Shown here: piece after piece, positions 13,466 through 34,257 of the stretch | Numbering within the stretch: the first letter of the stretch is position 1 | How the letters are laid out: every line of letters begins with the position of its first letter | Virus record (IMG/VR): IMGVR_UViG_3300047494_000112 | Coordinates: 123,325-187,324 of that record | Origin: a virus | Length of the DNA: 64,000 nucleotides | Reading direction: 5' to 3' (one strand) | Made by a program: the position numbers and the translations under genes | The notes under the pieces: model-generated | Told to the model about the DNA's origin: nothing | The model's database searches: none | What the model saw: only the letters and a program-made list of their open reading frames with translations

Positions 13466-13498
13466 TCTGGTAAAATATACATGAAGGGGTTACTCTAG

Positions 13499-23017: not shown

Positions 23018-23036
23018 TACGCTAAAATTAGGCATG

Positions 23037-23069
23037 AGGCCCATTGGCGAAAGCTAGTGGGCCTTTTTT
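23037..23069 (+). terminator. Rho-independent terminator
   Basis: aggcccattggc-gaaa-gctagtgggcct then tttttt. Confidence 0.85.
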
Positions 23070-23090
23070 CATATCAGAACTTGCTCGGAT

Positions 23091-23293: not shown

Positions 23294-23322
23294 TTTACAG
23301 ACCTCTCCTAGTCGTGTAAAAT
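23294..23322 (+). promoter_or_regulatory. Sigma70-type (early) promoter
   Basis: TTTACA-N17-TAAAAT, followed by a leader hairpin acgttcacc/ggtgaacgt. Confidence 0.7.
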
Positions 23323-23401
23323 TGGGACACGTTCACCATGCGCGGATTTCAGCAGGTGAACGTTTCACTCAAAACAACTGATATGGAATGGAGATACTGA
23401 C

Positions 23402-24965: not shown

Positions 24966-25253
24966 ATGAAAGAAACGCTAAAGTCTTTTAATTCTTGGCT
25001 GGCCGATGAGAAAGCCAAAGAAAGTTCACTCTATGATTGTTGGGAAACAACTTGTAACACCTTTGGCGAACAAAAGGCTCGATACTTTTTATCGACGATA
25101 GACTTTCCTGTCCTTCACACACACCAGGTTTGGTGTGAGGTGTTGACACAGATAATGATTGATTGTGTGCATGATTTTCAGGACAACAAAAGAACAAAAC
25201 AGTCAATTGTTCCGGCAAAATCAAACGTTGTCCCTTTCAAGCCAAAAATTTGA
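24966..25253 (+). CDS. Hypothetical protein
   Basis: ORF 24873..25253; likely ATG at 24966. Confidence 0.65.
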   Translation: MKETLKSFNSWLADEKAKESSLYDCWETTCNTFGEQKARYFLSTIDFPVLHTHQVWCEVLTQIMIDCVHDFQDNKRTKQSIVPAKSNVVPFKPKI

Positions 25254-25333
25254 AACTAATGCCTACCGGGCGAGATTGTAAATTGGTCTCGCTAGGCAGA
25301 CAATAGTTGTCTGGATTCAAAGGAGAAATTCAA

Positions 25334-27059: not shown

Positions 27060-27242
27060 ATGTCACCTGACGAAAGCAACTACAAAGCCACGGAAACAGT
27101 TACTTTGACACCTTACGAGGTTCAGATGATCATGACCATGGCTGAATATTATGTTGACTGTGAAGCTGAGGCACATGAATTGGGTTGTATTCAATCTGTG
27201 CTGAACAAGATGAAGGGGTGCAAGCAACCCGCATTTAGCTAA
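27060..27242 (+). CDS. Small hypothetical protein
   Basis: GGAGG RBS. Confidence 0.6.
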   Translation: MSPDESNYKATETVTLTPYEVQMIMTMAEYYVDCEAEAHELGCIQSVLNKMKGCKQPAFS

Positions 27243-27305
27243 TACGAAACCAGAGCCCAGGGATAACACCAATAATCCTGGGCTCGCGCTTCGCATTGGG
27301 CGAAG
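27239..27305 (+). promoter_or_regulatory. Repeated structured intergenic motif, copy A
   Basis: CTAATACGAAAC-[9-bp hairpin]-CGCTTCGCATTGGGCGAAG; same flanks as 33814-33875. Confidence 0.65.
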
Positions 27306-27343
27306 ATACTAGCATAGAATATCTATAGCAAAAGGAAAAACAC

Positions 27344-27517
27344 ATGCCGAAAGAGCTGACTGTCGATGAAATGATCGATCAAGCCGAAAAAGTGTTGGCT
27401 GAAAATGGGAGGACGCCGCCATCTCCGTCCACAATGTTCATTGCTTTTGACTACGCGGATGCAATGGAGGACTGTGTCGATGATGGCTACGATTACAGCG
27501 TAAAGTATCTGATGTAA
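27344..27517 (+). CDS. Small acidic hypothetical protein (57 aa; below the ORF-track cutoff)
   Basis: AAGGA RBS; MPKELTVDEMIDQAEKVLAENG...YSVKYLM. Confidence 0.6.
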   Translation: MPKELTVDEMIDQAEKVLAENGRTPPSPSTMFIAFDYADAMEDCVDDGYDYSVKYLM

Positions 27518-27527
27518 CTATTCACTG

Positions 27528-27562
27528 GGTGAGGATCAACTGTTGATCCTCACCTTTCTTTT
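27528..27562 (+). terminator. Rho-independent terminator
   Basis: ggtgaggatcaac-t-gttgatcctcacc then tttctttt. Confidence 0.75.
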
Positions 27563-30252: not shown

Positions 30253-30528
30253 GTGCCCAAGCTAGTTGAAAACTCAGATTACAGGTTAACGATCTACAAT
30301 CGGTATGGGCCAAAAACTAGACAAGAGTTGTATCAAGTAAAAGGCAGAAATTATTTTCGTATTAGCGAGATGACAAAGCCTGGACTGATACGGTGTTTGG
30401 CGCATCTGTCAGAAAAGACCCGAAGGCAATACCTGACTGACATTTGCCGAGAACTTCGAGTACGCCAAATACTTGGCAAAAACGGTGTCACGTACTATTT
30501 TCTATCAAAGAAGAGGAAAAAGCAATGA
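30253..30528 (+). CDS. Hypothetical basic protein
   Basis: GTG-start ORF coupled to the next gene. Confidence 0.55.
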   Translation: MPKLVENSDYRLTIYNRYGPKTRQELYQVKGRNYFRISEMTKPGLIRCLAHLSEKTRRQYLTDICRELRVRQILGKNGVTYYFLSKKRKKQ

Positions 30529-33553: not shown

Positions 33554-33817
33554 ATGCAAACTATGAACAAATTTTTGGATTTGGTACTTAGGTTTCAGAA
33601 TCTTTCAGTAAAATTTGGAACGAGCAAATCTTCTTCGTATCAAGTCTCTTTGACTATAGGTCAGGATAAAAAATGGTGTCTAAATTTAGGCTGTTATGAT
33701 ATAGAAGACTGGCCTAGGAATTTATTGCTAGGCCCATTTTTGAATATAGAAGAAGTGTTGGAGGCTTTTGAAACGAAGGTAAAGGAAGCGGAAGCAATTC
33801 CAGATAATTTCGTCTAA
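33554..33817 (+). CDS. Hypothetical protein
   Basis: AAGGA RBS. Confidence 0.65.
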   Translation: MQTMNKFLDLVLRFQNLSVKFGTSKSSSYQVSLTIGQDKKWCLNLGCYDIEDWPRNLLLGPFLNIEEVLEAFETKVKEAEAIPDNFV

Positions 33818-33875
33818 TACGAAACGAGAAGGGTGGGCAGGGTTTCCACCCTTTACGCTTCGCATTGGAGCGGAG
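33814..33875 (+). promoter_or_regulatory. Repeated structured intergenic motif, copy B
   Basis: CTAATACGAAAC-[8-bp hairpin aagggtgg/ccaccctt]-CGCTTCGCATTGGAGCGGAG. Confidence 0.65.
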
Positions 33876-33903
33876 AAACAACCAAAATGAAAGTTATCAT
33901 AAC

Positions 33904-34221
33904 ATGGCGAAAAACATTGAAGCACGTCTGGCTCTCTTGCAGCAGGCAGTATTGGCACTTTTGCCGGCGACAGGAACTCACGCCAAAGTGATCAAGGAAA
34001 CAGAGGAAGCTTTTCCTTTGATCACTGAGAAGAAGCGTTTGGCTTTTGCATCCAGCGTTAGCAAGAAGCTTTCCAAGGCTGAAAAGCCGGCCAAGGATTC
34101 CAAAAAAGAGACCAAAAAATCGGAAAAGAAAGTCGAGAAAAAGGTAGCCAAGAAGAGCAAAAAGCTCGAAAAGAAGCTGGCAAAAAAGGCAGGCAAAAAA
34201 GCAAAGCAGCTTTCGGACTAA
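33904..34221 (+). CDS. Lys-rich histone-like small protein
   Basis: C-terminal half is K/A/E-rich (KKSEKKVEKKVAKKSKK). Confidence 0.75.
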   Translation: MAKNIEARLALLQQAVLALLPATGTHAKVIKETEEAFPLITEKKRLAFASSVSKKLSKAEKPAKDSKKETKKSEKKVEKKVAKKSKKLEKKLAKKAGKKAKQLSD

Positions 34222-34233
34222 TTGTTTAACATT

Positions 34234-34257
34234 GAGGGTGGCAATATTGCCACCCTC
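34234..34257. terminator. Perfect 24-bp palindrome
   Basis: gagggtggcaatattgccaccctc. Confidence 0.55.

Follow-up and report, generated by a model that had tools for sequence, protein, structure and literature searches.

A two-copy intercistronic stem-loop element with mutually pairing flanks in a large uncultured phage, a candidate RNA processing or stability signal

What might be the role of a sequence of about 70 bases that appears twice in a phage genome, where it begins each time at the stop codon of a small gene and retains identical ends while its central hairpin is replaced by another? This question is raised by two sites in a window of 64 kb (the whole stretch of DNA analyzed here), which is the terminal part of a 187,324-bp IMG/VR phage record that is about 81% complete. 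The phage is large and myovirus-like, carries tRNAs and an NAD-dependent ligase, and has only distant relatives. Comparison of the two sites indicates that they carry a real structured element that is private to this phage lineage. Its sequence family is new, and its general kind is already known from phage intercistronic stem-loop elements.

Location of the element and its neighboring genes

Copy A spans positions 27239-27309 of the window and copy B spans positions 33814-33879. The two are direct repeats located 6.5 kb apart in a region populated by small ORFans. Each is intercistronic and lies between genes of the same strand, with no promoter-like site within the element, and all genes that neighbor either copy are on the + strand. 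Both copies read as the preliminary description had reported, beginning at the upstream stop codon, whose TAA is located inside the 5' flank (27240-27242 in copy A and 33815-33817 in copy B).

The gene that ends in copy A (27060..27242, + strand) codes for a 60-aa ORFan, has a strong Shine-Dalgarno (SD) sequence, and is a singleton in the protein collection. Downstream of this copy is a gene for a 57-aa acidic ORFan (27344..27517, + strand), after which a terminator scan identifies a canonical terminator with a U-tract (27527-27555). The gene that ends in copy B (33554..33817, + strand) codes for an 87-aa ORFan. The gene downstream of it (33904..34221, + strand) codes for a 105-aa Lys-rich protein and is followed by a hairpin at positions 34234-34257. 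Downstream of both copies, the order is therefore a single small gene and then a further strong hairpin. No paralogy was found among the flanking genes.

Conserved flanks and a compensated central stem

The element opens with a 5' flank of 12 nucleotides (27239..27250 and 33814..33825, + strand) that is identical in both copies and whose bases 2-4 are the TAA of the upstream gene. This is followed by the P2 hairpin, which in copy A (27253..27285, + strand) has arms at 27253-27262 and 27276-27285 and a loop of 13 nucleotides, and in copy B (33828..33854, + strand) has arms at 33828-33837 and 33845-33854 and a loop of 7 nucleotides. The 3' flank (27287..27299 and 33856..33868, + strand) comprises 13 nucleotides that are again identical. 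Spacing is also common to the two copies, with the stem beginning 2 nucleotides past the 5' flank and the 3' flank lying 1 nucleotide past the stem. A 10-nucleotide tail completes the element (27300..27309 and 33870..33879, + strand), and the two tails differ by the insertion of a base and by two substitutions, A/G and T/A.

The preliminary description regarded the two internal hairpins as unrelated. Their sequences do differ and both form stems, but the 10-bp P2 stems align in exact register. Five pairs are changed on both sides, one is changed on one side only (G-C to G·U), and four are unchanged. The flanks therefore carry no changes among 25 positions, whereas 10 of the 20 stem positions are changed, all of them compensated, and the P2 loops are free in both length and sequence. 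This combination of exact flanks and a compensated, in-register stem suggests that the flanks are under a sequence-specific constraint and that the stem is constrained in shape only, with both constraints acting in the transcript. The covariation must be considered anecdotal, since two sequences cannot carry covariation statistics and none of the relatives recovered carries the element.

Competing pairings and the choice of strand

On the + strand, the 5' flank (the 5' strand of P1) can pair with the 3' flank (the 3' strand of P1) across the P2 hairpin. A flank-flank pairing interrupted by a single A-C mismatch had been proposed previously. The pairing itself holds, but P1 has 10 of 12 positions paired and includes two A·C mismatches and one U·G pair. 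In each copy, P1, the junction and P2 combine into a single irregular helix that spans about 24 positions, and when the P1 plus P2 structure is applied to the two copies, 40 of 40 cells (100%) are standard pairs. Among 20,000 trials with shuffled flanks, 10 of 12 pairs were reached in only 17. Both copies also fold more stably than their shuffled counterparts, with z-scores of -4.3 and -4.7.

The 3' flank has an alternative partner. Six of its bases (27289-27294 in copy A and 33858-33863 in copy B) can instead pair with the tail (27300-27305 and 33870-33875, in each copy followed by a conserved end that is 4 nucleotides long in copy A), creating a 6-bp hairpin called P3 with a loop of 5 or 6 nucleotides. 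This substructure exists in both copies, and a U-A pair in copy A becomes U·G in copy B, in agreement with the G-U covariation noted before. The 3' parts of the two copies differ by one additional base in the P3 loop and by a substitution of A to G, which retains pairing, as U·G, on the + strand only. Both of these differences are better accommodated by an RNA hairpin than by a DNA operator.

P1 and P3 had been described as mutually exclusive pairings that could function as a switch. Constrained folding of copy A is consistent with this proposal, as P1 plus P2 (-26.2 kcal/mol) and P2 plus P3 (-26.8 kcal/mol) are nearly isoenergetic. For copy B, the corresponding values are -27.9 and -22.8 kcal/mol, and so P1 is favored by about 5 kcal/mol and the balance expected of a switch is seen in one copy only.

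A related proposal, that the GGAG located within the P3 strand of copy B is an SD sequence sequestered by pairing, has been weakened. This GGAG precedes the ATG at 33887 by 11 nucleotides, but this codon is in a different reading frame from the actual downstream gene. The Lys-rich gene starts at the ATG at 33904, as judged from the alignment with its L056 homolog (a protein from the syntenic contig described below), which runs from residue 1. No recognizable SD sequence is found near this start codon. The ATG at 33887, which lies 17 nucleotides upstream of 33904, opens an overlapping frame of 34 codons (33887-33991). In copy A, no start codon lies close to the P3 strand.

Thermodynamics alone leaves the strand unfixed. 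The - strand folds are the more stable, at -34.1 and -30.6 kcal/mol compared to -26.8 and -27.9 kcal/mol for the + strand, because the two A·C mismatches of P1 become G·U pairs there. Conversely, four G·U pairs of the + strand turn into A·C on the reverse strand. We have assigned the element to the + strand by gene orientation, given that its neighbors are all encoded on this strand.

Search for additional representatives

Exactly two full copies were identified in the 187,324-bp record, whether the search used mismatch-tolerant patterns or a covariance model derived from the two sites. The copies score 97.6 and 88.6 bits with this model, which finds nothing else apart from their own reverse strands. 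A covariance-model search of the genome, its relatives and Rfam had been recommended as a check for more copies or covariation, and none of either was found as far as public data reach, which is an outcome that the preliminary description had named as counting against its proposal. When IMG/VR was scanned with three gapped patterns, 0, 46 and 13 stretches were recovered, none of them credible under the model, and the best stretch (E 1.3) lacks the central hairpin. The 3' motif yielded 46 matches in JGI metagenomes, mostly in GC-rich contigs and none with the flank-hairpin architecture, and blastn against GenBank phages produced only fragments. A permissive Rfam scan returned only microRNA-precursor noise (14-18 bits against thresholds of at least 70). 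Membership in an Rfam family is rejected, as there is no match at the gathering threshold, and tRNAs are the sole Rfam families that pass threshold in the window. The original impression that the element belongs to no known riboswitch or ribozyme class is thus upheld by the Rfam comparison.

Scans of IMG/VR with the flanking 188-aa and 167-aa proteins, with the ligase and with a four-sequence alignment also found no relatives. The nearest relatives are 23 contigs (L056-L078, ~141 kb), which were recovered from large protein collections by using the proteins of neighboring genes, and the element is absent from all 23. One of these contigs, L056, is syntenic with the window: six window genes have homologs there in conserved order, with 27-63% amino acid identity. 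Genes located farther from the copies keep their order in L056. Three genes, namely the two that end in the copies and the one that follows copy A, are singleton ORFans missing from this contig, and the position equivalent to copy B is occupied by unrelated DNA.

Ahead of the Lys-rich gene, positions 6348-6431 of L056 carry a promoter-like site (TTGACA-N17-TACGCT, with TGG before the -10) followed by an 8-bp hairpin. Thus, the same junction bears different regulatory DNA in L056 and in this phage.

A sequence matching the 5' flank with one mismatch is present at positions 30354-30365 of the window (- strand), immediately ahead of a possible gene start. Chance alone would be expected to yield about 0.3 matches of this kind, and so this site may be a half-element or nothing.

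A possible RNA processing or stability signal

In its helix length, its internal mismatches, its lack of a U-tract and its placement between cistrons, the element matches RNase III-type processing or stabilizer hairpins. Our preferred reading, which we hold tentatively and at somewhat short of an even chance, is that the element is a cis-acting structure of the + strand mRNA, namely a long and irregular intercistronic hairpin of the RNase III-processing or 3'-stabilizer type. RNase III substrates are about 20-22 bp in length, and mismatches can lead to single-strand cuts that leave a stabilizing 3' hairpin (PMC3867540). An irregular, loop-capped helix of this length is present in both copies.

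If this reading is correct, P1 would be formed from the conserved flanks and would stack on the variable P2 stem to create one irregular helix in a + strand polycistronic mRNA, starting on the upstream stop codon and ending without a U-tract. We infer that transcription passes through the site, and that cleavage or blockage of an exonuclease at the element would give the message of the upstream ORFan and that of the downstream small gene separate fates. Translation might also influence the structure. The stop codon and the next 10 nucleotides provide the 5' strand of P1, and so a terminating ribosome would cover this strand and would have to melt P1. The freed 3' strand could then re-pair to form the alternative 6-bp P3.

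The stronger claim, that the element is an RNA switch gated by translation termination in which melting of P1 gives way to P3, is modeled from the competing pairings and strikes us as quite improbable. With such a switch, the translation load of the upstream ORF would set the timing of either processing by a nuclease or accessibility of the leader downstream, and its sequence family would be new and confined to one lineage of uncultured phages.

Several observations argue against the RNase III reading. A generic RNase III site would not need exact flanks of 12 and 13 nucleotides. The two A·C mismatches of P1 on the + strand, the more stable - strand, and the unequal balance of conformers in copies A and B also count against it, as does our failure to find an RNase III gene of the phage's own.

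This genome tends in general to carry long composite hairpins. Among 49 other hairpins of its intergenic regions, 5 had 10 of 12 pairs in the lower stem. A further example at positions 25253-25308 of the window is a long irregular hairpin of about 21 pairs, interrupted by single-base mismatches and lacking a U-tract. It begins 2 nucleotides after a stop codon and ends before the SD sequence of the next gene. Its architecture is that of the element, to which it is not homologous.

Alternative explanations

The location of the element invites a different interpretation, in which the copies are linkers for recombination, or regulatory cassettes, of the type called PeSL, and mainly provide a patch of homology at the borders of ORFans for the shuffling of accessory genes, regardless of any role in the transcript. 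In its favor, the copies are direct repeats 6.5 kb apart in a small-ORFan region, the adjoining ORFans are absent from L056 while genes farther away remain in order, and L056 has different DNA at the copy B-equivalent position. PeSLs similarly combine a variable stem-loop with conserved flanking sequence beside ORFans (PMC4122927). However, neither a -35/-10 pair nor a Mot-box/-10 pair is present at consistent spacing in both copies, and two copies are few compared to the dozens of PeSLs per T4-type genome. We consider this explanation possible but unlikely. A simpler history, in which an intergenic segment without dedicated function was duplicated or gene-converted and its hairpin was later replaced, would make the identity of the flanks a mark of recent events. 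That there are just two copies, private to one genome, fits such a history, as do the presence in that genome of at least one further intergenic repeat with two copies (30 or more nucleotides) and the frequent occurrence of GC-rich hairpins between its genes. It leaves unexplained why no flank position has changed beside a stem with half of its positions replaced in register and with compensation, and why both copies are placed in the same way on the upstream stop codon. This explanation is distinctly unlikely in our estimation, and we rank it behind the linker.

The element could alternatively act as DNA, either as an imperfect palindrome that extrudes as a cruciform or single-strand hairpin, as a set of half-sites for a phage protein, or as what remains of a small mobile element whose terminal inverted repeats are imperfect. 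As DNA, the flanks constitute a 9/12 inverted repeat, the reverse strand scores with the model and folds more stably, and exact conservation of 12 plus 13 nucleotides suggests sequence-specific recognition. Against this, there is no target-site duplication, conservation runs asymmetrically beyond the right arm, and a dimeric operator would be impaired by the spacing and half-site changes seen in the short palindrome on the 3' side. The further copies usual for a mobile element are absent, and neither a tyrosine recombinase nor a reverse transcriptase was found in the record. A DNA-level role is rather improbable and comes after a lack of function in our ranking. Finally, the existence of alternative pairings is a feature expected of a ligand-sensing riboswitch, but there is no multi-helix junction and no conserved unpaired core. 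The conserved bases lie mostly within helices, the loops vary freely (13 versus 7 nucleotides), Rfam yields only noise, and the downstream genes are unrelated and share no metabolic theme. These characteristics make a riboswitch or a ribozyme the least probable of the identities weighed, and a very remote one.

The processing or stability signal is our preferred reading, and we regard the element at present as a well-defined candidate for a bench test and not as a discovery. If functional, it would provide a small system, readily altered by mutation, for studying how the fates of neighboring small genes are set post-transcriptionally in a large uncultured phage, and it might reveal how ribosome termination feeds back on mRNA structure. 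Because it marks the borders of ORFans, the element also bears on how phages swap accessory genes.

Other repeated motifs in the phage genome

A second two-copy intergenic repeat, exact over more than 30 nucleotides, is found at positions 23320-23353 of the window and elsewhere in the genome (C1:122694-122727; L055 3294-3327). Each copy is located about 50 nucleotides upstream of a + strand gene and follows a shorter motif that is also shared. The copy in the window partly forms a hairpin, and the repeat may be a shared leader or regulatory site.

The sequence TGG-TAAA(A/G/T)T is enriched in intergenic regions throughout the genome, often after TC, with examples at window positions 13468, 23271 and 34949. 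It resembles an extended -10 promoter with no clear -35, and in contigs L056 and L072 of the relatives a motif like it is found after TTGAC(A/G) boxes. Two nearly identical terminator hairpins of 13 bp, with GNRA-like loops and U-tracts, are present at window positions 23036-23071 and at genome position C1:30879 (- strand), one in each replichore-like half of the genome.

Comparison with known systems

Several identities were considered and rejected. A T7-like promoter was examined as the first 8 nucleotides of the flank match the start of the T7 promoter, but no match to a single-subunit RNA polymerase was obtained (control genomes also gave none). A diversity-generating retroelement or retron is disfavored by the failure to find a reverse transcriptase, and a MITE by the absence of target duplication and the asymmetric conservation. 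Translational bypass or readthrough does not fit copy A, where the downstream frames close within a few codons. For a small antisense ORF or sRNA on the - strand, there is neither an SD sequence nor a shared promoter.

Like an intrinsic terminator, the element is a GC-rich hairpin located just after a gene. Identity as an intrinsic (Rho-independent) terminator is rejected, given that no U-tract follows either copy and that the terminator scan omits both while reporting the hairpin at 27527-27555. Canonical U-tract terminators occur 220 nucleotides downstream of copy A and elsewhere.

The element also shares with the attC sites of integrons an imperfect palindrome that overlaps the stop codon of a small accessory ORF, with outer parts that pair and a center that is variable but paired. 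Unlike attC sites, its flanks lack the RYYYAAC and GTTRRRY core sites, and it is found in a phage context and in two copies. The absence of core sites, together with the lack of a match to PF00589 (tyrosine recombinase) in the 187-kb, ~81% complete record, led us to reject this identity.

The early polycistronic mRNA of phage T7 carries RNase III processing signals between its genes (R0.3 to R1.3 type). These sites resemble the element in being irregular hairpins of about two helical turns that are intercistronic, reside on the coding strand and lack a U-tract. In these sites, a lower and an upper stem are separated by mismatches or an internal loop (PMC3867540). The element shares this architecture, with the lower part more conserved and the upper part variable. 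The element differs from the T7 sites in its exact flanks of 12 and 13 nucleotides, its competing P3 and its presence in two copies. The likeness is one of architecture, with cleavage only predicted. RNase III sites are further characterized by site-specific cutting and by a proximal box free of antideterminant pairs, features that the element would be expected to share.

The PeSL and PmSL modules of T4-type phages (PMC2839356, PMC4122927) are likewise repeated intergenic modules in which a variable stem-loop is combined with conserved sequence, and both they and the element adjoin ORFans in regions of myovirus genomes that are plastic in T4-type phages and may be so here. In PeSLs, the stem-loop is followed by a promoter of the sigma-70 or Mot type, and the copies are numerous, whereas the element has no promoter and two copies. 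A promoter cassette is accordingly rejected: the promoter scan is silent in both copies, reading by hand reveals no -10 at a consistent distance, and the extended -10-like motif enriched in this genome is absent from the element. A middle promoter is rejected as well, with no -10 at the distance from a Mot box that would be required in either copy. The element is further distinguished from PeSLs by its conserved flanks, which pair with each other across the stem-loop.
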